Both the position numbers and the translations under genes were made by a program. This document shows, piece by piece, positions 1,075-39,648 of a stretch of DNA of 54,457 nucleotides. The notes below the pieces were generated by a model that saw only the letters and a program-made list of their open reading frames with translations, did no database searches and had not been told where the DNA came from. Every line of letters starts with the position of its first letter. Within the stretch, counting starts at the first letter, position 1. Source of the DNA: a virus; UHGV virus genome UHGV-0096558; one strand, given 5' to 3'.

Positions 1075-3417
1075 ATGGCTACCAGTGTAGGTACAATTTA
1101 TTACGAAGTTGACGCGAAAACTGGTCAACTTCTCGTTGCACAACGACAGGCAGACCAGGCCTTTGACCGTATAGAGCGCGGCGCAAAACAGGCTGACCGC
1201 CAGGTAAACACCCTGAAAACATCCATCAAGGCACTGACCAGGGTTATCCATTTGCTAATTGCTGCCGAGGCTGTGCGCCAATTTATGGATATGGCGGAGC
1301 AAGCAAAAATGCTTCGCGTAAAAATCAAAATGCTTACGGGCGATGCGGAGTCCGCCGGACGGGTTTTCGACGGCCTGAAAGCAATATCCAGGGAAACGGG
1401 GCAAAGCCTGAAGGATACTGGCGAACTATGGCAAGGCCTGGCTATCTCACTGAAGAACACGTCCGCTACGGAAGGGCAATTGCTTAACCTGGTTGGTACG
1501 ATTCAGAAAATGGGGGCGTTGGGCGGTGCGTCAGCGGAGCAGATGTCAAACTCAATGCGTCAATTCCGTCAGTCTATCGACGGAGGCGTGCTTCGTGCTG
1601 AAGAATTCAATAGCCTGTTAGAGAACACCCCGACCATCGTACAGACAATGGCCCGCCAGATGGGGTTATCTATGGGCCAATTCCGCGCAGAAATGCTGGA
1701 AGGCAAGATCACGGCTGAAAGGATGGTTAACGCAATCCAGGCGGCTACGCAGGAAACAAACGAGAAGTTTGCGCAGTTGCCGCGCACATCCGGCATGGCC
1801 CTGAATGAGCTTAAAGTCGAGGTTATGGGGCTTGTTGAGCAGTTGGATGATCTTTTCGGTGTATCCGATACGGTTGTCGCTGGTATCGATCTTGTCACGA
1901 AAGGTGTTAAGGCTTTAGGTGAAGGCGCTGATTTCGCTAAAACCTGCTTTAACACACTGAAGACGGCTGGTAGCGAATTTATTGATATATTTGAAGATGT
2001 CGGAATCAAGGCTGGCGAGGTAGCGGAGAAGATCATCGCAATGGTCACGCCAATCAAAGCACTAATGGACGCCTATAAATGGATGAAGGAGGTTGTAGGG
2101 GAACAAACAGACGAATATAACAGCAACTACGAGAAGAAATACGGTAAGACCGTTGGTAAGGTCATGCAATTACAGGATGATCTGACCGCAGCAATCCAGG
2201 CTACAGAGGAAGCAAGGAAAAATGAACAGAATGCCGCCAATGACGGAGCGATTACCGGATTCGACAAGCCAGTAGACAAACCTAAAAAACAGAAAAAAGA
2301 GAAGAAATCAGAAGCTGATCGGCTTGGTGATAAAGGTATAAGCGTTTCTGACCAGTACAACAAAGACGCCGCCGCTATGCGCAAAGCGTTAGAGAACGGC
2401 AAGGCCATTGATGCTGCATTCGCCCAGGGTAAAATCACCCTCCTTGAGTACCGCGCCGCGCAAAAAGGGATAGGCAAGGAACTGAAGGAAGAATTAGCGC
2501 AAATTCCGGTAGAGGAATTGCGTGATAAATGGGCGCAAATAGTAAGCCCGATGGATCAGCTTAAAGGCGAGGTTGACCCTATTCAGCAGGTCCAGAATGA
2601 ATGGGCAGTCCGTAAGCAAATGCTTATCGACCTGGGCGTTACGGAAGCGCAACAGAAACAGGAACTGTTAGCCTATGAGCAGCAGATCCGCGATCTAAAG
2701 TGGGAACAATGGCAGGCGCAAAGCGACACAAACAGTCTGATAGGTTCTTGTGTCAACGGCCTAAAAGGTGGCATGAGTAATGCGCTTGTTGGTCTGTTAA
2801 ACGGTACTCAATCGCTTAGCGATGTATTCGCAAACTTGGGTAGCAATATTCTTGGTTCAGTAGGGAATAAACTTGCGGAAATTGCTGGCGACTGGATAGC
2901 CGATCAGATCATGATGGAGACACAAAGCAAGGCAACGCAGGCAAGTACAACGGCTGGCGCGGTAGCGGCACAAGGCCAGATTGCAGCGGCGGCGGCCCCG
3001 GCAGCGGCGGCAACAGCGGCGTCAACTGGCGGCGCATGGGCGGCGGCTGGTTCGGCGGCACTTACTGCGATCATGTCGCTGGCGGCGTCAATTTTTGGCG
3101 GCGGGCGATTTAATGGTGGTAGCGTCATTGGTGGCAATATGTACCGCGTAGGGGAACACAACAGGCCGGAGCTATTCCAGACGTCTAACGGAAACCAATA
3201 TATGATTCCGGGCGAGAACGGCAGAGTTATCCCTGGTCGTGATATTGGCGGCGGTGGCGGTATCAGTATGCCTGTCAGTATCACCATTCAGACCACAAAC
3301 GGATTTAGCGACGAGGACAGCCGCAGACTTGAGCAAACAATGGAACGTGTAGCAATGAAAATGATAACAAGGGAATCACAAAGACCGGGCGGAATATTGC
3401 AGCCGCGCCGCAAATAA
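1075..3417 (+). CDS. tail tape measure protein, 780 aa
   Basis: Long helical protein with Ala/Gly-rich C-terminal region and a lambda H-like C-terminal motif; lies immediately upstream of M-L-K-I-J homologues. Confidence 0.75.
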   Translation: MATSVGTIYYEVDAKTGQLLVAQRQADQAFDRIERGAKQADRQVNTLKTSIKALTRVIHLLIAAEAVRQFMDMAEQAKMLRVKIKMLTGDAESAGRVFDGLKAISRETGQSLKDTGELWQGLAISLKNTSATEGQLLNLVGTIQKMGALGGASAEQMSNSMRQFRQSIDGGVLRAEEFNSLLENTPTIVQTMARQMGLSMGQFRAEMLEGKITAERMVNAIQAATQETNEKFAQLPRTSGMALNELKVEVMGLVEQLDDLFGVSDTVVAGIDLVTKGVKALGEGADFAKTCFNTLKTAGSEFIDIFEDVGIKAGEVAEKIIAMVTPIKALMDAYKWMKEVVGEQTDEYNSNYEKKYGKTVGKVMQLQDDLTAAIQATEEARKNEQNAANDGAITGFDKPVDKPKKQKKEKKSEADRLGDKGISVSDQYNKDAAAMRKALENGKAIDAAFAQGKITLLEYRAAQKGIGKELKEELAQIPVEELRDKWAQIVSPMDQLKGEVDPIQQVQNEWAVRKQMLIDLGVTEAQQKQELLAYEQQIRDLKWEQWQAQSDTNSLIGSCVNGLKGGMSNALVGLLNGTQSLSDVFANLGSNILGSVGNKLAEIAGDWIADQIMMETQSKATQASTTAGAVAAQGQIAAAAAPAAAATAASTGGAWAAAGSAALTAIMSLAASIFGGGRFNGGSVIGGNMYRVGEHNRPELFQTSNGNQYMIPGENGRVIPGRDIGGGGGISMPVSITIQTTNGFSDEDSRRLEQTMERVAMKMITRESQRPGGILQPRRK

Positions 3418-3420
3418 ACA

Positions 3421-3452
3421 AAAACCCCGGTACAATGCCGGGGTTATCTTTT
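3421..3452. terminator. bidirectional rho-independent terminator (stem CCCCGG / CCGGGG with flanking A- and T-runs)
   Basis: Hairpin at 3425-3443 between convergent genes (tape measure +, 58-aa ORF -). Confidence 0.6.
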
Positions 3453-3627
3453 AGTTATTCTCAAAACTTGTATATCCTCTTTCAATTTTCCCGCCTCTTA
3501 CACTTCTTGCAAATACTGCATCAGCATGTTTGAAAAATGGTTCAGTATATGTGTCTCCTTTACTATCCATCCATTTCACGATCCAGGCTATACGTTTTAC
3601 ATTGCTTTTATTTGCCGGGTTTTTCAT
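3451..3627 (-). CDS. hypothetical protein, 58 aa (MKNPANKSNVKRIAWIVKWMDSKGD...)
   Basis: Manual translation (below ORF-track size cut-off); GGAGG 9-13 nt upstream of ATG at 3627; stop adjacent to terminator. Confidence 0.5.
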   Translation of the reverse strand: MKNPANKSNVKRIAWIVKWMDSKGDTYTEPFFKHADAVFARSVRGGKIERGYTSFENN

Positions 3628-3746
3628 TTTATTTTCCTCCGCAAATTACAATCTTCCGTTTCTGGCTATATAGCTGCGAGAAAACATCACCAACCAAATA
3701 TTCCAGATCTCCCGCCAGGTGAATTTATCGTCCTCCATATCCCGCC

Positions 3747-4001
3747 TCACTTATGCGCCCCTTTAACCCCGCAGTGGCGGTTATATTCCAGATGATCGAT
3801 GATTAACCAGACTTTGAGATCTTCGCTAAACAGCCGCCAGTCAGGGTTAATATCGAATTTAAAACCGTAACCATCGCGTAACTTTTTGGGGCGCGCCTCT
3901 TTCTTCAAAAATGCTTTAAGCAGTTCCTTACCCTTCTTGATAATCCGGTCCTGTGCGTTTTTCTGTACTTTCAGGTTTTTGTCGATCGCTACCAGTTTCA
4001 T
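3747..4001 (-). CDS. hypothetical protein, 84 aa; cargo gene between tape measure and M
   Basis: ORF track; RBS GGGGGTGAG upstream of ATG at 4001. Confidence 0.6.
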   Translation of the reverse strand: MKLVAIDKNLKVQKNAQDRIIKKGKELLKAFLKKEARPKKLRDGYGFKFDINPDWRLFSEDLKVWLIIDHLEYNRHCGVKGAHK

Positions 4002-4020
4002 AGCTCACCCCCGATTATCC

Positions 4021-4176
4021 TTAATTAAGAGCCTTCAGGAAGAAACCACGGTATTCATCTTCTTTTGCATTCATCATGAATTGACCGTATTTGAATGCAT
4101 CGTCGAAACCCTTAACGATTGCTATTTCCACTTGTTCGAATGCGTTGTTTAGCATTACCACTACATAGCGTTTCAT
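4021..4176 (-). CDS. hypothetical protein, 51 aa (MKRYVVVMLNNAFEQVEIAIVKGFDD...)
   Basis: Internal start of ORF 4021..4227 with strong RBS AAGGAGG; 20 nt upstream of next gene in the same cassette. Confidence 0.5.
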   Translation of the reverse strand: MKRYVVVMLNNAFEQVEIAIVKGFDDAFKYGQFMMNAKEDEYRGFFLKALN

Positions 4177-4242
4177 TTTTGGGCCTCCTTCGTTGGTACT
4201 GCTTTTCTTCTTGCTTTCTATATACATCTTGATGCGTGCTAT

Positions 4243-4330
4243 GTGAAGCCATTTTGTAAACTAGCTATAATCATTGTGATGAAGATCTCATTTTTTGCGT
4301 AGAATCGCGTAAAAGTATATACAAAATGTA
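4243..4330. promoter_or_regulatory. divergent control region carrying GTGAAGCCATTTTGTA (4243-4258, identical 16-mer at 1017-1032) and TATACAAAATGTA (4318-4330), then RBS and M start
   Basis: Read directly. Confidence 0.4.
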
Positions 4331-4346
4331 AATTATAGGGGGATTT

Positions 4347-4700
4347 ATGCCTGAAGTGTTCCGATGGACACCACAAAGAAGCTACAGCGTAAACAGTGAG
4401 CCTAACGTGTCTGTCATTAAGCTGGGGGATGGGTGTGAACAGCGCCAGACAAAAGGGATTAACCCTTTACTTGATAGCTACAGCCTGGTTTTTAAAGGCA
4501 CAAGCGCCGGATGCGGTGACGCCGGAAACGTGGCGCTCCAGGTTGACGCATTTTTAAGGGCGCGTTGCGCGGTCGAGGCGTTTTACTGGACTCCATCAAC
4601 TGACGGGGTGCAAAGGCTTTTTGTATGCAGAAAGTGGAGCATGACGAAAGACGGCCCGGTATGCACGCTAAACGCAACTTTTGAGCAAGTTGTCAATTAA
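4347..4700 (+). CDS. M: minor tail protein M-like
   Basis: 117 aa ending ...ATFEQVVN, as recalled for lambda gpM; position upstream of L. Confidence 0.75.
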   Translation: MPEVFRWTPQRSYSVNSEPNVSVIKLGDGCEQRQTKGINPLLDSYSLVFKGTSAGCGDAGNVALQVDAFLRARCAVEAFYWTPSTDGVQRLFVCRKWSMTKDGPVCTLNATFEQVVN

Positions 4701-4713
4701 TGGAGGTGTCAAT

Positions 4714-4899
4714 ATGTATGCTATTTGTGTAGTGGACCGCACGGGCGCTTTTACATTGTTTGACGACTATGAAATTAAAGATCTTACTGTAAAGGCTGAC
4801 AATGGCGAGATCTGGTATCTTCATGATGTTGGTGACGGGTATGTCGGATGCAGATCGAGAGAGGGTAGGGAAGTGTTATTTTTGCTTGATGGCTTATAA
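4714..4899 (+). CDS. hypothetical protein, 61 aa; inserted between M and L
   Basis: ATG at 4714 with RBS GGAGGTG; ORF track 4681..4899. Confidence 0.5.
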   Translation: MYAICVVDRTGAFTLFDDYEIKDLTVKADNGEIWYLHDVGDGYVGCRSREGREVLFLLDGL

Positions 4900-4903
4900 A
4901 CAC

Positions 4904-4927
4904 GACCCCGCGCGAAGCGGGGTTTAT
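4904..4927. terminator. rho-independent terminator-like hairpin (CCCCGC / GCGGGG) followed by TTTAT
   Basis: Between convergent genes 4714..4899 (+) and 5000..5248 (-). Confidence 0.45.
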
Positions 4928-4999
4928 AGTGTCGATAGCAGAATACATAACAATCCAATGATGATAATAATCACTTCCAAAACGTAATTTTCGCACATC

Positions 5000-5248
5000 T
5001 CATAACGCCCCCTTCAAATATGTCAATCCCTTATCAGTGACGAATGAATGATTTACCTGGTTTTCATCCGTCATGATGATGAATAACTTTTCCTGTAGGT
5101 ATTTTGCTTTCGGGTACAGCGTTAAGCAGACCTGGTACAGTATCCCGCGTTCAATCAGTAAATCAATGAATTCATGTTCATGATAACCGACAAGGCGGGC
5201 GGCCTGCTTCAACGTGTACACATAATTACTGTGATTGCGCCGCGCCAT
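5000..5248 (-). CDS. hypothetical protein, 82 aa (possible helix-turn-helix region)
   Basis: ORF track; RBS AAGGCGG upstream; last gene of a 3-gene minus-strand cassette. Confidence 0.55.
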   Translation of the reverse strand: MARRNHSNYVYTLKQAARLVGYHEHEFIDLLIERGILYQVCLTLYPKAKYLQEKLFIIMTDENQVNHSFVTDKGLTYLKGAL

Positions 5249-5257
5249 ATTGCCGCC

Positions 5258-5611
5258 TTATTTATTGAACGCGCCAAGGTTGTCGATACAGAAATCTTTC
5301 GCCGCTTTTTCGTATTCGCGTTTTGCTTCAGGATCATCTGCCGGGAAACCGTGCGCGTGTATTTCCGGGCAAGACTGATCCATAGAATCCGCAAGGTTTT
5401 CTTTAAAGCAAGCGCCGTTATCAATATCGTATTTCATACATTCCACCTTATCCGGTATTTGCACTGGAGTAATTTTGAATTCTCTGGCGCGTCCGAAGAA
5501 TCGAACAAGTTTTTCTCCTTCCTCGACTGCCATTTCGTAACTGTCATGCAAGCCGTAACCTTCCCAATCATCACTACCAGCCATCCAGACATCAAGACGA
5601 TACTTTTGCAT
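5258..5611 (-). CDS. hypothetical protein, 117 aa
   Basis: In-frame internal ATG of ORF 5258..5689 with RBS GAGGG upstream; acidic protein. Confidence 0.5.
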   Translation of the reverse strand: MQKYRLDVWMAGSDDWEGYGLHDSYEMAVEEGEKLVRFFGRAREFKITPVQIPDKVECMKYDIDNGACFKENLADSMDQSCPEIHAHGFPADDPEAKREYEKAAKDFCIDNLGAFNK

Positions 5612-5615
5612 TTTG

Positions 5616-5780
5616 CTAACCCTCATATTTGACAGGTTTGATCTGGTATCCCAAAACGCGGTCATCCTCCGAAAGTTCAAGCGCATCAATCAGCGCTTCC
5701 CCCTCGTCGTCATACAGAGCGATAACCTTTTCCCTCCCGTCAGTCATGAACACCGTCAACTTCCATAGCTTTTCAGTCAT
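5616..5780 (-). CDS. hypothetical protein, 54 aa (MTEKLWKLTVFMTDGREKVIALYDDEGE...)
   Basis: Internal start of ORF 5616..5900 with GGAGG 6 nt upstream; first gene of cassette. Confidence 0.4.
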   Translation of the reverse strand: MTEKLWKLTVFMTDGREKVIALYDDEGEALIDALELSEDDRVLGYQIKPVKYEG

Positions 5781-5909
5781 CATGCACCTCCGCGCCATTT
5801 TGTTAACTATGCTTCCGTTTGAGTAAAATATACATATTGTAAAAACCGCGATCAATCCATTTTGGTATGATTTAGCGTGACGCAGATCACAAAATGACAA
5901 GGTGAGAAA

Positions 5910-6614
5910 ATGCGCAATATTCCGAGAGAGATGATTATTGATTCCGTCGATGCCGGAGTCGGCGCGGTCATCGACTTATTTGAACTGGACCTGACCCCAC
6001 TTGGCGGCGAGGTTGTCCGCTTCCATTCCGGCGCTAATGGCTATTACGGGAATGTTATCTGGAAGGGTATCGCTTACAACAGCTACCCGATCGAAGTTAG
6101 CGGCTTCGAAATGAAAAACGAGGGGGTATACGCGCGGCCTCAAATGGCAGTAGCCAACATCGGCGGCCTTATTACCGGAATGAATAACGACTTTAACGAC
6201 CTTCGCGGAATGAAAGTTACCCGCCGCCAGGTGGAGGTTAAATACCTGGACGCTGTTAACTTCCCTAACGGCAATCCAGATGCAGATCCTTCTATTGAGG
6301 CGGTATCTGTTTACGTTGTCGAGGCAATGAGTGAAGAAACGGCGGAGCAAGTACAGTACGAACTATCAACGCCAGTAGACGCAGACAAGGCTGTTATACC
6401 TGGGCGCACCATCCTTGCTGACGTTTGCCAGTGGCAATATCGCGGAGACGGTTGCGGATATAGCGGCGGCCCGGTAGCGACTGATAAAGATGCGCCGACC
6501 AGTGATCCAACATTGGATAAATGCAGCCACCGCCTCAGCGGTTGTCGCTTGCGCTTCCCGCGCCCGAATCCGTTACCAATTTCATGTTTCCCCGGATCAA
6601 GCAAGGTGGGCTAA
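5910..6614 (+). CDS. L: minor tail protein L
   Basis: Recognisable similarity to lambda gpL (EIDLT..GGE, ...RRKV..R.LDAVNF.NGN..ADP..., ...W.YRGD.CGYSG..., DKCS..LSGC). Confidence 0.9.
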   Translation: MRNIPREMIIDSVDAGVGAVIDLFELDLTPLGGEVVRFHSGANGYYGNVIWKGIAYNSYPIEVSGFEMKNEGVYARPQMAVANIGGLITGMNNDFNDLRGMKVTRRQVEVKYLDAVNFPNGNPDADPSIEAVSVYVVEAMSEETAEQVQYELSTPVDADKAVIPGRTILADVCQWQYRGDGCGYSGGPVATDKDAPTSDPTLDKCSHRLSGCRLRFPRPNPLPISCFPGSSKVG

Positions 6615-6616
6615 TT

Positions 6617-7348
6617 ATGGCACTTGAAGACAAAATGGTTCGTTATGCCGCCGCTCACCCTCGCGAGGAAGTTTGCGGACTGGTGATAGATAACGATTAT
6701 TTTTACCCGTGCTTAAACATGTCTGAAACGCCCTACAACAGCTTTAAAATTTCGCCGGACGATTACATCAAGGCTGACGAATTGGGCGTCATAACCGCCG
6801 TTTTCCACTCTCACGTTGAAGATATTCCGGTATTGTCGGCGCTGGATCGACAACAACAGGTTATTTCCGGCCTTCCGTGGTTTTTATGTTCCGGTGGCAG
6901 GGTTAGAAAATTCCGCCCGGTAGCGCACCTGTTAGGCCGAAAATTTGAGCACGGAAAAACAGACTGCTACGCGCTTTTCCGGGACGCCTATCACCTTTGC
7001 GGCGTGGATCTGCCGGACTTCGAGCGCCTTGATGGGTGGTGGTTGCATGGTGAAAACCTGTATTTAAAAAACTTGCCGCTAAACGGGTTTTATCAGGTTG
7101 ACGCGCAAAGCATCCAGCCTGGTGACGTGATTATTCGCCAGCCGTTCAAGGGTGCTGATCCATGTCACGCGATGATTTACCTGGGTGATAACACTGTTTT
7201 GCATCATGACAATGCCGGACTGTTAAGTCGCCGCGAGCAGATGCGGCCCGCTTATGTTCGACAAACGCATTCAATATGGAGATCTGACAAATGCTCAAAT
7301 TTAGATTTACGGGCAATCTTCGAAGATATTACGGCAAAGTGTGTTTAA
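6617..7348 (+). CDS. K: tail assembly protein K (MPN/JAB plus NlpC/P60-like domains)
   Basis: ATG at 6617 (MALEDKMVRY...) just after L stop; HSH..D motif and NlpC/P60-like Cys/His region; lambda gpK-like. Confidence 0.85.
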   Translation: MALEDKMVRYAAAHPREEVCGLVIDNDYFYPCLNMSETPYNSFKISPDDYIKADELGVITAVFHSHVEDIPVLSALDRQQQVISGLPWFLCSGGRVRKFRPVAHLLGRKFEHGKTDCYALFRDAYHLCGVDLPDFERLDGWWLHGENLYLKNLPLNGFYQVDAQSIQPGDVIIRQPFKGADPCHAMIYLGDNTVLHHDNAGLLSRREQMRPAYVRQTHSIWRSDKCSNLDLRAIFEDITAKCV

Positions 7349-7835: not shown

Positions 7836-10800
7836 ATGGGCGGCGGTGGTGGTAAAGCAAAAACACCAGTTTTATTAAACGATAACTTGTATCATAAGCA
7901 GTTTTATCGCGTCCTGGATATCCTGTCAGAAGGGCCGATTTATGGCCCTGTCAATCAGGCGGCACCGTTAAACTGCGTAATGCTTAATGATACGCCTATA
8001 ACTGACACCGTGGGTAACGCAAGTATCCCCGGCGTTAGTATTGCGTGGCGTCCTGGTAGTCTCGACCAGTCTCCAATCAATGGATTTAACTCCATTGAAT
8101 CGACTGTAATGGTCAATGCACAGGTTAAGCACGATACGCCGATTATACGCACAGTATCAGACAGAAATGTCAATCGTGTACGTCTTAATATTGGCGTTGA
8201 TTCTCTGGTATCGAGCGACAACCAGGGGAACCAGTACGAAACATCCGTACATTTAGCTATAGATATTAAACCTTCATCATCATCGTCATGGACTATAGTT
8301 AAAGATGTAATTATCGGACCGGGTAAAATTAGCGGGGAATACCTTGAATCACACATCATTGATGCGCCGAGTGAGTACCCTTTCGATATTCGCGTTCGCA
8401 GAATTACGGCAGATAGCACCAGCGATCTACTTCAAAACGACACACGCTGGAATAGCTACAGCGAGATCATAGATGACAACCTGTCATATCCTCACACGGC
8501 GGTAGCTGGCTGTGTTATTGATCACGATCAGTATACTGATACACCGACCCGCGCTTATCATCTTCGCGGGCTGATTGTTGACGTGCCGGACAACTATAAC
8601 CCTGAAGCGCGCACGTATTCCGGTTTATGGCTTGGTGGATTTAAAAAGGCGTACACCAATAACCCTGCTTGGCTTTTCCGGTATTTGATTAAAAATGAAC
8701 GCTTTGGCCTTGCACGACAGGCTGGTTATATTGACGTTGATGACGGCGCTTTATACGTGCTTTCTCAATACTGCGACCAGTTGGTTGATGATGGCTACGG
8801 CGGCCTTGAGCCTCGCATGACGCTTAACGCTTACATCACAGAGCAAATGAGCGCCCGCGACTTACTTGATAATATAGCTGGCATGTTCCGTGGTATTGCG
8901 TTATGGGACGGGCAACGTCTTACAGTGATGATTGATGCGCCACAAGATCCGATTGCAACTATCACGAACGCAAATGTCGTAGATGGTGCATTCACCCGTT
9001 CGAGCCTTGCCCGCGCGGAGTGCTATAACGCCGTGATTGTATCCTGGACCGATCCGGGTAACGGTTGGGAACAGTCAAAAGAATACGTTTCTGACGATGA
9101 ACTAATCGCCCGCGACGGCTACAACGAAACCACACTGGAGGCGTTCGGGTGCACGTCTCGCGGACAGGCTTACCGCGCTGGTAAATGGCTAATCGAAACA
9201 GCAAAACGCGAGCCGTCGAAATTTACGTTTAAAATGGCCCGTGACGCCATTCACTTTACACCAGGTGATATCATTGAGATCCTCGACAATAACCGCGCGG
9301 GCGCTCGCTTAGGCGGTCGTATCGTGGCGAACAATGGCAAAGTGATAACGGTCGACAAGGTTGATTCTGAATATATCGCGGCTGGTGACACCATCAGCTT
9401 ACTTGATAGCGATGGTAAATTTAAAAAACACCAGATCACCGGAGTTAACGGAAACAATATTACCCTTGCTGCGGCCCCGGCATGGATTCGCAATGGCACT
9501 GTTTTTGCTGTATCGACTGAAGCAGCAAAACCCGTTTTATGTAGGATCACCAGCGTAGCAGAAACAGAAAATAACAGCGTATACACTATCGAAGCCGCAC
9601 AGCACGACCCTAACAAACAGGCCGTAGTTGATGAAGGCGCAGTCTTCGAAATCAACAACGACACGCTGAATCATTTCCGTGTGCCTAACATTGAAAACCT
9701 CAAGGTAATGAATGTTGGTTCCGAAACCGTTCAGTGCTCCGCGTCGTGGATGACGCAGACCACAACTCACCGTCTGACCTTTGAATTACGTGTTTATAAC
9801 GAAGACAGCAAAGTTGTCGCCAGTTATGAGACGACAGAATTCCGGTATGATTTTAATGGCCTGAATTGCGGTCAATACTCTTTAGGCGTTCGCGCCCGCA
9901 ATGATACCGGTATGAAAGGCGCGGAATCTATCGTTGATCTCGTTATTGGTGCACCTTCAAAACCAATTGGTGTTAACTGGATACCAGGCGTATTTCAGGC
10001 TACTGTGTACCCAATCAGCAAAACAACTCTGACCAGCGATACAAGCTATGAATTCTATTTTGCTGGCGAAACACAAATCACTAATCCGGCATTAGTCACC
10101 ACTAATGCACAATATACCGGACGTGGTTATCAGTGGACGTTCGGCGGAATGAACACGGGCCATACTTATTACGTTTATGTGCGCACGCGTAACGCTTTTG
10201 GTGTATCAGATTTCGTAGAGGCGTCAGGTAAACCAACAGAGGATTTCGATGAAATCAGCGATTACGTAACCAAAGACGTGATGAATTCTGACCAATTTAA
10301 AGGAATGGTTAGCGACATTAAAGATCTTGGCGACCGCACCGACCTTATCGAAAGCGCCACTGACGACCTTAAAACAGCCACTGATAATCTTACCAATATC
10401 ACAAACGGCCTAAGAACTGATACTGACGACCTTATTGCAGAAACAGGGTCAATAAAAGCTGACACAGATACGCTTAAAAAAGACACGGAAGATCTTTATA
10501 AAAAAGTTCAGGAAAACGCCGATGATATCGGACAGCATGAGGTAAGAATTGACTCATTAGAGGTATCAAGTGAAAAAACCGACAGCGAACTGGCGCAGGC
10601 AAAAGCAAGCCTACAAAACGCATCGCTTGCCCTTATTAATAACTCGCTTGCACAGACTAACACCCGCGTAACTCTTACCGCTCAGTACAAGAAAGGTAAA
10701 ACAGAGACGAAAGCGGAAATTGACCGTATTGACAACGTTATCGCTGAAGAGAAAAAAGCGACTGCGGAATCACTGGAAACCATCACGGCAGAGATGAACA

Positions 10801-21308: not shown

Positions 21309-21326
21309 TATGGCATCGCCTCCGGT

Positions 21327-22469
21327 TTACAAAATGGAATATTCAGGGTAATAAACAAAGCGCCCGATTTCCCCATGATCAGGACTGTAAATTATTACCG
21401 CAGCCAGCCGCCGCGACCGCCAGCCGCCATTCGTTGAATAAGCGTCTTTGCCAGCTAACGTGCCGTGATACTCAACAACGCCTAACGATGATTCAATCAG
21501 CCGTTGGTGGTGCCAGTGTCCGCAATGGGCGTAAACCGCCGCCGACTTGCCGAAATCCTCCCTCCAGTCAGAGACGCAGGCAGACAACAAATTTTCTGGT
21601 TTTTTGATAGTATGACCGTGATGATAGGCAAGGAATGTTTTGCCGTACTGTGTGTGGTGGACGATAGCAGGGGACACGTCAACCGTCACACGCGGTTCAT
21701 CTTCGTAAAAAGCCGCCAGCGCCGCACGTAGCCAAATCATCCCTGATTGGTCGTGGTTGCCGGATAATACCTGGATCTCGACGTCCTTATGATTTAGCAA
21801 CATCTTTCCGACCGCCCGCCGGACCGAACGGATCGCCACGTAAACAAGTTTTGCGTAGCGTGAATCACAATCTAAGACGTGGTTGCTTGATGGCGTCACT
21901 GGTAATAGCCCGTCAGTGTGAAGAATATCACCGCCTAACAACAAAACAGCCTTTTCAGACATTGGCGCAGCGCCTACCGCGTAGTCGAAGAAGTCATTTA
22001 GCACGCGTTCAGCGATCCCGGTGTCGTAGCTCTCACCGCATTCAGCTTTATGAGCAAGCGCCCCGATATGCAGATCGAATACCGGATAAAGGGCCAGGCT
22101 TTTTTGAAAATCAATTTCCGGCACTGGCACGGCCTCCGCGCGGGGTATTTCTTCCGTGAAGGCGTCACAAGCAGATTGCATTAGCATTTCCATTTCATCG
22201 CGGTCACGGGCTGTTTTAATCCAGCGCATAATCACATTGCCATCCTTATCGACGAGCAATGACTCAGCATTGACGCCAAAACCCGGTGCGCGGCGCGTGG
22301 ATATCAAACCGCGTTTCGCCAACCGTGCGCCCAGGCGTTCGACGTTGCGTTTTGCCATGCCATATTTTTCTGCGATCTGTTTATACGTCAGACCGTTATT
22401 ATGTTCAGCGATTAACTGTTCATCGCTGATCTTTCTTTGACACATAATGTTATATCCTCCGGTATACAT
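21327..22469 (-). CDS. fusion protein: N-terminal helix-turn-helix plus C-terminal calcineurin-like metallophosphoesterase; in the helicase-loader position
   Basis: HTH-like LTYKQIAEKYGMAKRNVERL; phosphoesterase-like motifs VFDLHIGA, GGDILH, GNHD, HCGHWHH; preceded by motif TATACAAAATGTATA and RBS GGAGG. Confidence 0.65.
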   Translation of the reverse strand: MYTGGYNIMCQRKISDEQLIAEHNNGLTYKQIAEKYGMAKRNVERLGARLAKRGLISTRRAPGFGVNAESLLVDKDGNVIMRWIKTARDRDEMEMLMQSACDAFTEEIPRAEAVPVPEIDFQKSLALYPVFDLHIGALAHKAECGESYDTGIAERVLNDFFDYAVGAAPMSEKAVLLLGGDILHTDGLLPVTPSSNHVLDCDSRYAKLVYVAIRSVRRAVGKMLLNHKDVEIQVLSGNHDQSGMIWLRAALAAFYEDEPRVTVDVSPAIVHHTQYGKTFLAYHHGHTIKKPENLLSACVSDWREDFGKSAAVYAHCGHWHHQRLIESSLGVVEYHGTLAGKDAYSTNGGWRSRRLAAVIIYSPDHGEIGRFVYYPEYSIL

Positions 22470-22500
22470 TTTGTATATTCATTGACAGCAAACAATCTCT

Positions 22501-24699: not shown

Positions 24700-25347
24700 A
24701 TGAAAACAAAATGGTATGACTTAGCAAAGCAGCTCATGCGAGCGCAAGGTATGAGCCAAGATTCACTCGCGGATCTCATGGGGATAACTAAAGGCGGCCT
24801 GTCACACTGGCTTAACGGTCGCCGCGAGCCAAATCTTGAAGATATTGCGCGGATTATGCGGGCGCTTGGTCGTCGGCAATTCACTGTTACACATGATGGA
24901 ATGGTCATTGATGATTCTGTTTCTAACACGTTACCGGGAGCGCCGCAGCGTGATTTAGGTAGTTACCCGGTTGTTGACTGGAAGGACACAGTAAACAATA
25001 TGGATGATACAAGGCTATCAACATTACCACACGTTACGACTAGCGTTATTTGTTCAGATGATAGTTACTGGCTGGTTGCCAAAGGTGAATCAATGAACGC
25101 GCCGCAGGGGTTGAGCATCCCGGCGGGGACGATGATACTTGTTGACCCGCACGCGCCAGCTATTGACGGCAAACTGGTTATAGCCCAGCTTGAGGAAGGG
25201 CAGATACCGACGTTTAAACAGTTGATTATTGATGGAGGTCAAAGGCTTTTACGTTCGCTCAATCCGCTGTATCCGCCAATCCCTATGAATCCAGAATCAA
25301 AAATTATAGGCGTGGTGGTTGATGCGAAGATCGTAAACCTGCCATAA
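24700..25347 (+). CDS. cI: CI-like repressor (HTH plus S24 LexA-type autopeptidase domain)
   Basis: N-terminal HTH (SQDSLADLMGITKGGLSHWLNG); C-terminal ...LVAKGESM... and ...VVVDAKIVNL; divergent from replication operon. Confidence 0.85.
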   Translation: MKTKWYDLAKQLMRAQGMSQDSLADLMGITKGGLSHWLNGRREPNLEDIARIMRALGRRQFTVTHDGMVIDDSVSNTLPGAPQRDLGSYPVVDWKDTVNNMDDTRLSTLPHVTTSVICSDDSYWLVAKGESMNAPQGLSIPAGTMILVDPHAPAIDGKLVIAQLEEGQIPTFKQLIIDGGQRLLRSLNPLYPPIPMNPESKIIGVVVDAKIVNLP

Positions 25348-25457: not shown

Positions 25458-25499
25458 TATACAAAATGGATTGACTCGGTGTTTTACGGGGCGTATATT
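25458..25499 (+). promoter_or_regulatory. candidate early promoter: motif TATACAAAATGGA then TTGACT (25471-25476), 17-nt spacer, TATATT (25494-25499); AT-rich upstream
   Basis: Near-consensus sigma-70 hexamers with 17-bp spacing. Confidence 0.5.
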
Positions 25500-25754
25500 G
25501 CGAGTCAAAGGAAGGTCGCAGGTAACAAAAAGCAACTTCCTGGCACTTTAAAAATCAGGCTTAACACCTTGTCAACCGTGGAGTAACTCCCCGATGGGGG
25601 ACCGAAAGCGGCACTGATAACAAGGCGCATGGGGTGTTTAAAGCGTTACATCCCCCACGAAACCGCACGCAAGGCGACGAGTCAGCTTGCTTGGAGTGAG
25701 CAAGGTCACGCTGGGAACGGCGATGATTGCGGGATTAGTTGAAAGATGTTAAGC

Positions 25755-38440: not shown

Positions 38441-38656
38441 ATGTTTGCAAGATGCGTTTATTCTGACACTACGTGCTTTACTACTGGCGAACTATATAGC
38501 GTTGATCTTCTTAATGGGTGCGAGCGCGGCGCTGGCGGTATTCATTATGTAAAAGATAATGATGGCGATGCGTGGCAATTTTACGGCGATTACGTAAAAG
38601 GGGTTGTTAAGGGTAGTTTTGATAATCGTGTGATGGCGCGTTTTGTTAAGTGGTGA
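38441..38656 (+). CDS. small protein, paralogue family member (C..S...F..G..Y ... D..G..W.FY pattern)
   Basis: ORF track; shares motif with 38666..38905 and 38902..39126. Confidence 0.5.
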   Translation: MFARCVYSDTTCFTTGELYSVDLLNGCERGAGGIHYVKDNDGDAWQFYGDYVKGVVKGSFDNRVMARFVKW

Positions 38657-38665
38657 GGTAGTGTT

Positions 38666-38905
38666 ATGAGACAGAATCAGAGATACCAGTGCACATACTC
38701 ACGATGCAGCGCGTTTTTTAAGAATGGCAAGATCTACGAAGTCGGCGCGGCATTGGTTGACGCAAAGGATCAGGAATATATTCACGCCATTACTGACGAC
38801 CAGGGCCAGTTATGGCGATTTTATAAGATGGGCTGTGGCACTGCGCTTGTTTATGCGCGTGCTGGTGGTGGTGCTTTTGCTGCGTTTTCGTATGTAGGGG
38901 TATGA
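38666..38905 (+). CDS. small protein, paralogue family member
   Basis: ORF track; CTYSRCSAFFKNGKIYEV...DDQGQLWRFY. Confidence 0.5.
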   Translation: MRQNQRYQCTYSRCSAFFKNGKIYEVGAALVDAKDQEYIHAITDDQGQLWRFYKMGCGTALVYARAGGGAFAAFSYVGV

Positions 38906-39126
38906 AAATGATTTTAACGTGTAACGAGTCGGAATTAGGCTGTTTTGAGGAAGGCGCACAGTATACGGCTGAAAAACCGATGGGATTGTCGCCTAAGTTG
39001 CCGTTTATCGTCGTGACTGACACTTACGGTCACTTATGGTATGCAGAGCCGCGCCGGGGGACTGGTCGCTACGTTGTCCGTAGTTCTGACGGGGCTATGA
39101 AAGTTACTTTTACGGAAGAAACATAA
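38902..39126 (+). CDS. small protein, paralogue family member
   Basis: ORF track; CNESELGCFEEGAQYTA...DTYGHLWYAE. Confidence 0.5.
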   Translation: MKMILTCNESELGCFEEGAQYTAEKPMGLSPKLPFIVVTDTYGHLWYAEPRRGTGRYVVRSSDGAMKVTFTEET

Positions 39127-39184
39127 ATGTGATCTTCATCACAAGGTATACAAAATGGCATTGTTTCGGCAGTGCCATTTTGTT
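39127..39184. promoter_or_regulatory. compound element: palindrome GTGATCTTCATCAC, then TATACAAAATGGCA / TGCCATTTTGT inverted repeat (11-bp arms, 11-bp spacer)
   Basis: Read directly; upstream of gene 39225. Confidence 0.4.
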
Positions 39185-39224
39185 ATAAAGAAGCTGAAGA
39201 GAGAACAATGCGGAGGGCAGAAAA

Positions 39225-39497
39225 ATGAAACGCTGGATTAACGAAGAAACAGAAGCCCGCTTCAATGCAATTTGGGATCTGATTGAAAAAGAGGACGGCG
39301 TTTCTAGTCCCTACCTGAACAATCTTGAGTTCCACTATGTAGAAGCGATGAACGCAGAGCATGACCACGAAGGCGGTGCTGATGAATTCGCCAAAAAATA
39401 CGGCTTCGATGATGCAAACCATATGATTAACAACGTGGTGATGCAGGCAGAGGAAGACTACGAATGCAAATCACTTGAATTCGCACGCATGGCATAA
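39225..39497 (+). CDS. hypothetical protein, 90 aa
   Basis: ORF track; RBS GGAGGG. Confidence 0.55.
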   Translation: MKRWINEETEARFNAIWDLIEKEDGVSSPYLNNLEFHYVEAMNAEHDHEGGADEFAKKYGFDDANHMINNVVMQAEEDYECKSLEFARMA

Positions 39498-39507
39498 GGG
39501 GGAAAAC

Positions 39508-39648
39508 ATGAACGCTAACGCTAAATATCCGGCTTGGGTTTTCGAACTGTACGCAAGATACTTTGAATTACTGGCACCAGATGAAGAAGCATTAAGCATT
39601 GACGAGTACGCGGAGTGCTTAGGATTTAAAGGAGACGAAGAAGCATAA
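39508..39648 (+). CDS. small ORF, 46 aa, acidic
   Basis: Manual translation; RBS AGGGGGA. Confidence 0.4.
   Translation: MNANAKYPAWVFELYARYFELLAPDEEALSIDEYAECLGFKGDEEA

Follow-up and report, generated by a model that had tools for sequence, protein, structure and literature searches.

We analysed a 54,457-nt stretch of viral DNA (UHGV virus genome UHGV-0096558; the window, numbered from its first letter), in which two sets of small opposite-strand genes, cassettes A and B, lie among the tail genes. Three tail genes define the locus: the tape measure gene (TMP; 1075-3417, plus strand), which is followed by a G+C-rich hairpin at 3423-3445, and the genes of the minor tail proteins M (4347-4700, plus strand; Pfam Phage_min_tail, E 1.8e-27) and L (5910-6614, plus strand; Pfam Phage_tail_L, E 4.3e-72). 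Cassette A occupies the minus strand between TMP and M, in the order A1-A2-As-A3 (4176-3451), and cassette B the minus strand between M and L, in the order B1-B2-B3 (5780-5000). The single small open reading frame (ORF) of the region on the plus strand, P1 (4714-4899; 61 amino acids (aa), acidic, phrog_3249), begins 13 nt after the end of M and reads on from it along the late strand. An earlier note on this DNA, made by a model from the letters, had placed both cassettes and the 4714-4899 ORF at the right coordinates and on the right strands. It had counted three genes in each cassette, which is correct for B (B1-B3), but in A it overlooked the fourth gene, As, whose ratio of nonsynonymous to synonymous substitutions (dN/dS) is 0.06. 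It had also credited the small genes with their own ribosome-binding sites, and a GGAGG-like Shine-Dalgarno site could indeed be read from the sequence 5-10 nt 5' of every one of them.

The first gene of cassette A is A1 (4176-4021, minus strand; 51 aa, phrog_29810), followed by A2 (4001-3747, minus strand; 84 aa, isoelectric point (pI) 9.9, Pfam PF24732 ParE_like). As (3738-3646, minus strand; 30 aa) starts a few bases past the A2 stop and is annotated in phage MagusPhagus, and A3 (3627-3451, minus strand; 58 aa, pI 9.9) is a flexible gene with homologues solely in mEpimmI phages, the group introduced below. Cassette B begins with B1 (5780-5616, minus strand; 54 aa, acidic), continues with B2 (5611-5258, minus strand; 117 aa, pI 4.7) and ends with B3 (5248-5000, minus strand; 82 aa), a stand-alone KilAC domain. 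B1, B2 and P1 are all acidic (pI 4.4-4.7). The grand average of hydropathy of the cassette products ranged from -0.8 to 0.0, and, judged by this value alone, none was noted as hydrophobic.

The DNA of the region is 83-88% identical to that of Escherichia phages MagusPhagus, mEp021, mEp010, mEp013, mEp044, mEp515 and mEp554, and this similarity places the window in the mEpimmI (mEp021-like) group of temperate coliphages. Among 5426 complete E. coli genomes, 35 carried the locus as a prophage. A 2025 paper introduced the group as a new clade, Nus-dependent and non-lambdoid, with one immunity type only, and reported it to be as common as the lambdoid phages in one human faecal isolate collection (PMC11893012); the cassette genes are undiscussed in that report, which lists only a 'KilAC-like antirepressor' among its manually defined core proteins. 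The mEp021 region is colinear with the window, the mEp021 GenBank record carries the same minus-strand genes, ribosome-binding sites and terminators, and a Q-type late regulator is annotated in that phage. The G+C fraction of 300-nt segments was 0.39-0.45 inside cassette A and 0.44-0.48 inside cassette B, as compared to 0.46-0.60 in TMP and 0.50-0.55 in M and L, so that the cassettes differ only modestly from their neighbours.

We compared the locus with a sample of 80 viral contigs centred on M homologues, in which 39 loci represent the mEpimmI group; a distant set comprised 43 loci whose M proteins are 63-69% identical. Pairwise dN/dS, calculated from 9-31 distinct sequences per gene from related loci, was 0.06 for A1, A2 and As, 0.11 for A3, 0.09 for P1, 0.11 for B3, 0.21 for B2 and 0.25 for B1; the tail genes M and L gave 0.07 and 0.04, respectively. 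Values of this order (about 0.05-0.25) show that all eight small ORFs are real genes under purifying selection. Most of them are also near-universal in the group. A2 was found in all 39 loci, P1 in 38, A1, B3 and B2 in 37 each and B1 in 36, with one contig being truncated. The flexible members are As (22/39) and A3 (17/39). The distal, terminator-side ends of both cassettes hold changing orphan genes, the promoter-proximal genes being the near-universal ones, and some loci carry flexible genes 3' of B2, between B2 and the terminator hairpin of cassette B. The earlier note's term 'cargo' suggests sporadic passengers and does not suit this set: of the 39 group loci, 36-39 have A1, A2, P1 and B1-B3, and variation is confined to the terminator-proximal ends. 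The distal genes of mEp021 include a zinc-ribbon and a T5orf172 gene (mEp021_65/66; Pfam), and these two domains alone were recovered when the flexible neighbour genes were scanned with Pfam and PADLOC. The two genes adjoin the tape measure terminator of mEp021 (2643-3977 of locus L002).

The distant set speaks to how the locus arose. The gap between TMP and M was 3-18 nt in 17 of its 43 loci (full range 3-498 nt), and that between M and L was 44-46 nt in eight (full range 44-761 nt). Both junctions were essentially closed in four distant loci, and the rest hold unrelated small genes on either strand. These comparisons identify the H|M and M|L junctions as insertion hot spots, because the distant relatives have them either closed or loaded with other small genes. 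By the same comparisons, a lambda-like contiguous H-M-L state exists among the relatives and the cassettes are extra to the ancestral order, which bears out the view of the earlier note that they are inserted relative to lambda. Within the group, P1 through B1 was lost from one locus (L028) as a single clean deletion that kept the control region of L. In its gene order, the E. coli MS 21-1 prophage agrees with L028 and likewise lacks P1 and B1-B3 (what was compared here was gene order, not the junction sequence). P1 and B1-B3 were never discordant among the 38 loci that cover the region. Genes of the homing-endonuclease type exploit the same junctions: locus L038 carries, at 4514-4987, a 157-aa ORF that by eye resembles an HNH/AP2-type homing endonuclease and lies between the 15-mer described below and the M start codon, and mEp021 has an annotated HNH endonuclease gene between I and J (8474-9040). 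In three of the four cargo-free relatives displayed (L044, L045 and L075), a G+C-rich hairpin with a T-run sits in the 44-46 nt M-L gap. The terminator-like structure at this junction may be older than the insertions.

Each cassette is bounded by a divergent control region at its head and by a hairpin at its foot. Control region A (4177-4346), between A1 and M, contains a predicted minus-strand promoter, P_A (4260-4219), composed of TTTACAAAATGGC (4260-4248), the -35 hexamer TTCACA (4247-4242), 17 nt and the -10 hexamer TATATA (4224-4219), together with a TATAAT on the plus strand (4266-4271) and the 15-mer TATACAAAATGTAAA (4318-4332) just 5' of the M ribosome-binding site. Control region B (5781-5909), between B1 and L, contains the predicted minus-strand promoter P_B (5865-5827), composed of CCAAAATGGA (5865-5856), the -35 hexamer TTGATC (5855-5850), 17 nt and the -10 hexamer TATATT (5832-5827). 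The 15-mer TATACATATTGTAAA (5829-5843) overlaps the P_B -10, quasi-palindromes are found at about -41 and over the -10 of this promoter, and an extended -10-like TGgTATGAT stands on the plus strand 5' of L. The Jukes-Cantor distance between group loci was 0.15 for control region A, whose flanking genes have a dS of 0.9, and 0.12 for control region B, and dS across all four flanking genes (A1, M, B1 and L) was 0.4-1.0; judged by these distances, the control regions are far more conserved than the flanking synonymous sites.

The two predicted promoters share a design, namely TATACAAAATGG(A/C) abutting a -35-like hexamer, then 17-18 nt and a TATAWW -10. Written as AWAWTGGN-N6-N16-18-TANAWW, the pattern gave five sites in the window against 0.56 expected. 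They belong to the three minus-strand cassettes of the tail region, to the early P_R-like promoter and to one further cargo gene. The site at the third cassette (1034-994, minus strand) has its element at 1034-1023, its -35 at 1022-1017 and its -10 at 999-994. The site of the early rightward P_R-like promoter (25458-25500) lies 3' of the repressor gene and leads into a nut-like hairpin and an N-like gene. The one at 39147 (plus strand) reads TATACAAAATGGC, ATTGTT, 18 nt, TATAAA. A second quasi-palindromic copy (TATACA-N3-TGTAWA) lies over the -10 in three of the five.

At the other end, stable hairpins are predicted directly after the last gene of each cassette. T1 (3423-3445, both strands) serves TMP on the plus strand and cassette A on the minus strand; it folds at -16.8 kcal/mol (z -3.9) as the plus strand and at -15.1 kcal/mol (z -2.8) as the minus strand, the latter having the better U-tract. 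T2 (4905-4923, both strands), between P1 on the plus strand and cassette B on the minus strand, folds at -18.4 and -16.4 kcal/mol (z -3.5 and -3.1) with U-tracts that are weak on both strands, and it is annotated as a terminator on both strands in mEp021. The terminator that the earlier note gave to each cassette is in keeping with this folding on both strands. A generic terminator scan found four sites against 2.7 expected and lends no statistical support by itself, and an Rfam scan of the whole window returned no RNA family.

We favour, at a probability of roughly 60%, a reading of the cassettes as 'morons', a pair of accessory operons, autonomous and antisense, that are lodged in a lambda-type tail-tip module, one at H|M and the other at M|L. 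Each cassette would be transcribed leftward from its own sigma-70-type promoter, built on the TATACAAAATGG module, and its transcript would end at the hairpin that it has in common with the converging tail gene. Late transcription would read through these hairpins, as the group has a Q-type late regulator, and would run antisense over both cassettes; such a 'noncontiguous operon' layout would damp cassette expression late in infection. The cassettes are probably switched together with the early genes, coming on at infection or induction, because their upstream element is common to the early P_R-like promoter, which the repressor must silence for immunity. On the strength of this shared element, co-regulation with the early genes appears somewhat more likely than constitutive expression from the prophage. 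We infer that the products, that is A2 with its small neighbours, B1/B2, B3 and the late-strand P1, are small conflict-type proteins and not parts of the virion. A role in host or phage conflict, be it counter-defence, exclusion or an abortive toxin, is our working guess.

Several observations weigh against this reading. P_A and P_B are predicted promoters, and a generic promoter scan of the region found six sites against 5.9 in shuffled sequences, which is no excess. A plain A-tract of the UP type is also conceivable for the shared upstream element, and the cassettes would then be constitutive and expressed from the prophage, as the earlier note thought likely. Near-universal presence in the group fits vertical inheritance of a by now integral function equally well. 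The earlier note had thought of defence modules and had proposed profile searches and structure prediction for these proteins. In PADLOC-DB 2.0 there was no match at E <=1e-3 for nine window proteins or ten flexible neighbours, which leaves the defence module without backing; at E <=0.1 the matches were A2 to PDC-M02A (E 0.018, 13 bits) and mEp021_65 to PDC-S57 (E 0.0027, 15 bits). The profile searches yielded ParE_like for A2 and KilAC for B3, but no significant defence match, and nothing significant emerged from a NCBIfam scan of all cassette proteins. The structure models brought no functional lead either: the A2 model was of low confidence, and the confidently modelled N-terminal domain of B2 pointed to no function.

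The element at the control regions is not restricted to the cassettes. With up to two mismatches, TATACANANTGTAAA occurs 14 times in the window against 2.0 expected, a count that none of 100 shuffles reached, and the 8-mer ACAAAATG occurs 20 times against 2.3. The divergent control regions with a recurrent motif, as the earlier note had described them, are borne out by these counts and by the conservation of the two regions. When at most one mismatch to TATACAAAATG is allowed, 11 sites remain, every one of them intergenic and matched in position in mEp021. In the short intergenic gaps of the early operons, copies lie at 21326, 22467, 24615, 24650, 25458, 26137, 26254, 29554 and 33191, often 2-8 nt 5' of a Shine-Dalgarno site and also around the predicted P_L, P_RM and P_R; the spacers of the predicted P_L and P_RM contain more of them. 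At 22463-22477 the palindrome is perfect (TATACAAAATGTATA). M, the helicase gene, a 380-aa gene at 22443 and the gene that precedes erf each have a copy directly 5' of the ribosome-binding site; erf itself follows a weaker one (two mismatches). Several ACAAAATG copies contain probable start codons, for example that of the repressor gene at 24711.

These copies open a second reading, possible though clearly behind the first, in which a single phage regulator would use the 15-bp quasi-palindrome (TATACAAAATGTAWA or TWTACAAAATGGC) as its operator. The early P_R, P_L/P_RM, the three tail antisense operons, further cargo genes and the sites ahead of ribosome-binding sites inside operons would thereby be linked, and the cassettes would be early genes under immunity control, not morons expressed from the prophage. 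If true, the tail-embedded cassettes would be early genes parked in the late region. Candidate binders of the element are the CI-like repressor, a Cro-like protein and B3. Among solved structures, lambda CI is closest to the repressor, chiefly by its C-terminal domain, a match that yields no hint of the operator sequence. By eye, the copies fitted only inconsistently a sigma-70 -10, an extended -10, a LexA, CRP, IHF or TyrR site, or a start-stop mini-ORF. The reverse strand of the 15-mer (TTTACATTTTG) may resemble OmpR sites. In mycobacteriophage L5, a repressor site is repeated many times over the genome in short gaps between genes ('stoperators'), and the immI of P22 places a secondary regulatory cassette among the late genes. 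The window recalls both, through its dispersed 15-mer and its KilAC 'antirepressor-like' gene, but its sites are quasi-palindromic and several are associated with promoters.

Another reading, to which we give tentative standing at best, concerns cassette A, and has it as a type II toxin-antitoxin system in which A2 would be a toxin of the ParE/RelE fold and A1 its antitoxin, with prophage stabilisation or abortive infection as the outcome. A2 matched Pfam PF24732 ParE_like above the curated cut-off (E 7.9e-11, 42.2 bits against 24.4), and the name that the Prokaryotic Genome Annotation Pipeline gives to A2 homologues, 'ParE family toxin-like', agrees. As in ParDE and RelBE, a small basic protein is encoded behind a smaller gene of the same operon; A1 is near neutral, 19 nt separate the two genes, and both are tightly constrained (dN/dS 0.06). 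The reading faces a genuine obstacle. No partner of A2 is universal: A1 is missing in L004 and L005, where A2 is intact, 96-98% identical and placed directly after the promoter, and As is missing in 17 of 39 loci. A2 alleles that are only 62% identical stand beside A1 proteins that are 98% identical, and the pair does not co-vary. A1 and As had no match in Pfam or NCBIfam, hence no recognisable antitoxin or DNA-binding domain. The relatives of A2 (BLAST and word-indexed search) were confined to this phage group, with none on plasmids. The fold of A2 is unconfirmed. The AlphaFold2 model had a predicted local distance difference test score (pLDDT) of 58, and a Foldseek search of the PDB, meaningless at that confidence, gave no fold match; neither the A2 sequence nor its profile found a relative among PDB chains, and an hhalign comparison of the A2 family with RelE, YoeB, YafQ, ParE and HigB sequences gave a probability of 6.7%, which is unusable. 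Of the toxin-antitoxin likeness that the earlier note had raised, the toxin half keeps its Pfam match and its name; the antitoxin half is weakened, as neither A1 nor As is always present.

In cassette B, B3 matched the Pfam ANT/KilAC domain (E 1.5e-6, 28.9 bits) and shares 33-41% identity with the C-terminal part of Rha/Ant-type proteins from phages of Vibrio, Cronobacter and Hafnia; no relative was found among PDB chains by sequence. As a KilAC protein, B3 probably binds DNA. At the nucleotide level no other gene of the region is as conserved (dN 0.034, dS 0.31), as compared to a dS of 0.41 for B1 and of 0.8-1.3 for the other genes. B2 is a mosaic of three parts (homologues P0043-P0093). Its N-terminal part occurs as several unrelated-looking alleles, its middle reads MKYDIDNGACFKEN... 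or MNPKDINFNVNV..., and its C-terminal part is of one conserved kind, with invariant Cys81 and Cys108 and a near-invariant His85 in the alignment. AlphaFold2 modelled the sequence-variable N-terminal part as a beta-beta-alpha-beta domain with pLDDT >90. An exhaustive HMMER search of 1.84 billion proteins (E <=1e-3) returned eight representative clusters of B2 homologues, and the named matches of a word-indexed search were all E. coli or bacteriophage; by these searches B2 is an orphan family. No PDB chain was related to it by sequence, and the fold searches gave generic small domains and uncharacterised phage proteins. B1 and the B2 N-domain are probably tandem paralogues, because hhalign aligned them end to end over 48 columns (P 1.5e-4), the lone strong match (P <0.001) among 36 profile pairs of cassette proteins. 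The idea that A1 and P1 share the B1/B2 N-domain fold was unsupported by this all-against-all comparison. Divergence in the region is greatest in B1 and B2 (51-91% identity). P1 has homologues, 38-48% identical, in the virulent T1-like phages Rtp (gene 57) and Rogue1 (gene 53), where they stand among early small genes between the helicase/VRR-NUC genes and the exonuclease gene, outside the tail clusters.

In one reading of these genes, which we consider unlikely, cassette B and P1 form a defence and counter-defence noncontiguous operon of the phi80 tai/ati or JBD26 Tab/anti-Tab type, such that B1-B3 would block a competitor in the lysogen and the late P1 would protect the phage's own development. 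In phi80, the taiEcA/atiEcA locus has an opposite-orientation gene that interrupts the Q-dependent late operon, and late read-through lowers expression of the antisense gene (PMC11364771). The layout of the window is alike, with antisense genes in the late operon and a small adjoining late-strand partner, P1. The joint loss of P1 and B1-B3 in L028 and MS 21-1, with none discordant among 38 loci, would suit a functional pair, and the homologues in virulent T1-like phages would suit a protein whose counter-defence is usable there, where a lysogenic defence is not. The two loci differ in content: phi80 encodes a single 205-aa protein ahead of its packaging genes, and the window has three small genes between M and L. 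Against this reading, cassette B and P1 lack sequence similarity to TaiEcA and AtiEcA, and phi80 orf63 and orf64 found nothing among the cassette proteins (blastp) or in the whole window (tblastn). The joint loss is probably a single event, one deletion type only having been seen. The upstream element that P_B has in common with the early promoter speaks against simple constitutive expression from the prophage, and neither cassette B nor P1 had a significant PADLOC match. JBD26 Tab is an 83-aa moron protein in the late operon, with counter-defence from late transcription (PMC10884400). Its host is Pseudomonas and its gene lies between the terminase genes, and the likeness to the window is one of description only.

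An equally improbable reading has the cassettes as counter-defence or host-takeover operons of the Acr-Aca type, fired at infection, with B3 as an autoregulator that would shut a strong promoter through the palindromic sites. The acidity of B1, B2 and P1, the divergence of B1 and B2 beside a most conserved B3, and the flexible genes inserted between B2 and T2 in some loci are consistent with it, as are the quasi-palindromes near -41 and over the P_B -10 and the module shared with the early promoter. However, DNA binding by a stand-alone KilAC domain is not established, and the sole helix-turn-helix hint for the operon, a match to UPF0175 (E 0.0034), stays below threshold. The palindromes recur many times elsewhere and are not specific to this operon, a dN/dS of 0.2-0.25 in B1 and B2 is no sign of diversifying selection, and no target is known. 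Finally, that the small genes encode group-specific tail-assembly or virion accessory proteins, as their near-universality, their M- and L-like constraint and their place inside the tail module might suggest, is very improbable, given that seven of the eight are encoded opposite to the tail genes and have control regions and terminators of their own, that P1 and B1-B3 are missing from L028 and MS 21-1 and the whole set from relatives whose M, L and TMP families are the same, that none of gp65-74 is flagged as virion in the mass spectrometry-informed mEp021 annotation, and that the P1 homologues are early genes outside tail clusters.

Morons inside tail operons have long been known, and small defence genes with late counter-defence partners were described in 2024. 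HK97 gene 15, together with phi80 tai/ati the nearest precedent, is such a moron, extra DNA in the tail operon beside the tape measure gene with its own promoter and terminator (PMC3594210; Cumby et al. 2012). A third cassette of the window (916-155) is in exactly the same position. HK97 gp15 is a single membrane protein with shown expression from the prophage, whereas the window has multi-gene operons that are near-universal in their lineage. By its sequence, the locus is a multi-gene example with uncharacterised protein families and without homology to phi80 tai/ati. Beyond the known picture is the single cis-element common to the early promoter, to all three tail antisense operons and to other cargo genes. 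The eight constrained, lineage-restricted small proteins are reasonable candidates for new conflict proteins, because this position holds defence, exclusion and counter-defence genes in other phages. The more useful lead is the regulatory one, as an element common to the early promoter and the tail cassettes provides a handle on the timing of the embedded operons.

Three further features of the window were recorded. The third minus-strand cassette (155-1074), in the HK97 gene 15 position between the tail chaperone genes and TMP, comprises a 29-aa ORF (916-827) and a 219-aa lipoprotein (814-155) with the lipobox LVGC and a Pfam VasI match (type VI secretion system VasI-like, E 5e-16), and it has an 18-nt inverted repeat at 994-1037. 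The module at 39147 precedes a 90-aa acidic ORF on the plus strand (39225-39497); the surrounding stretch, 38441-39648, is absent from mEp021 and is therefore taken as another cargo unit. Downstream of the locus, a long ORF (6521-7348) overlaps the end of L, and comparison with mEp021 places the K start about 21 nt after L, at the ATG of ACAAAATGG (6635).

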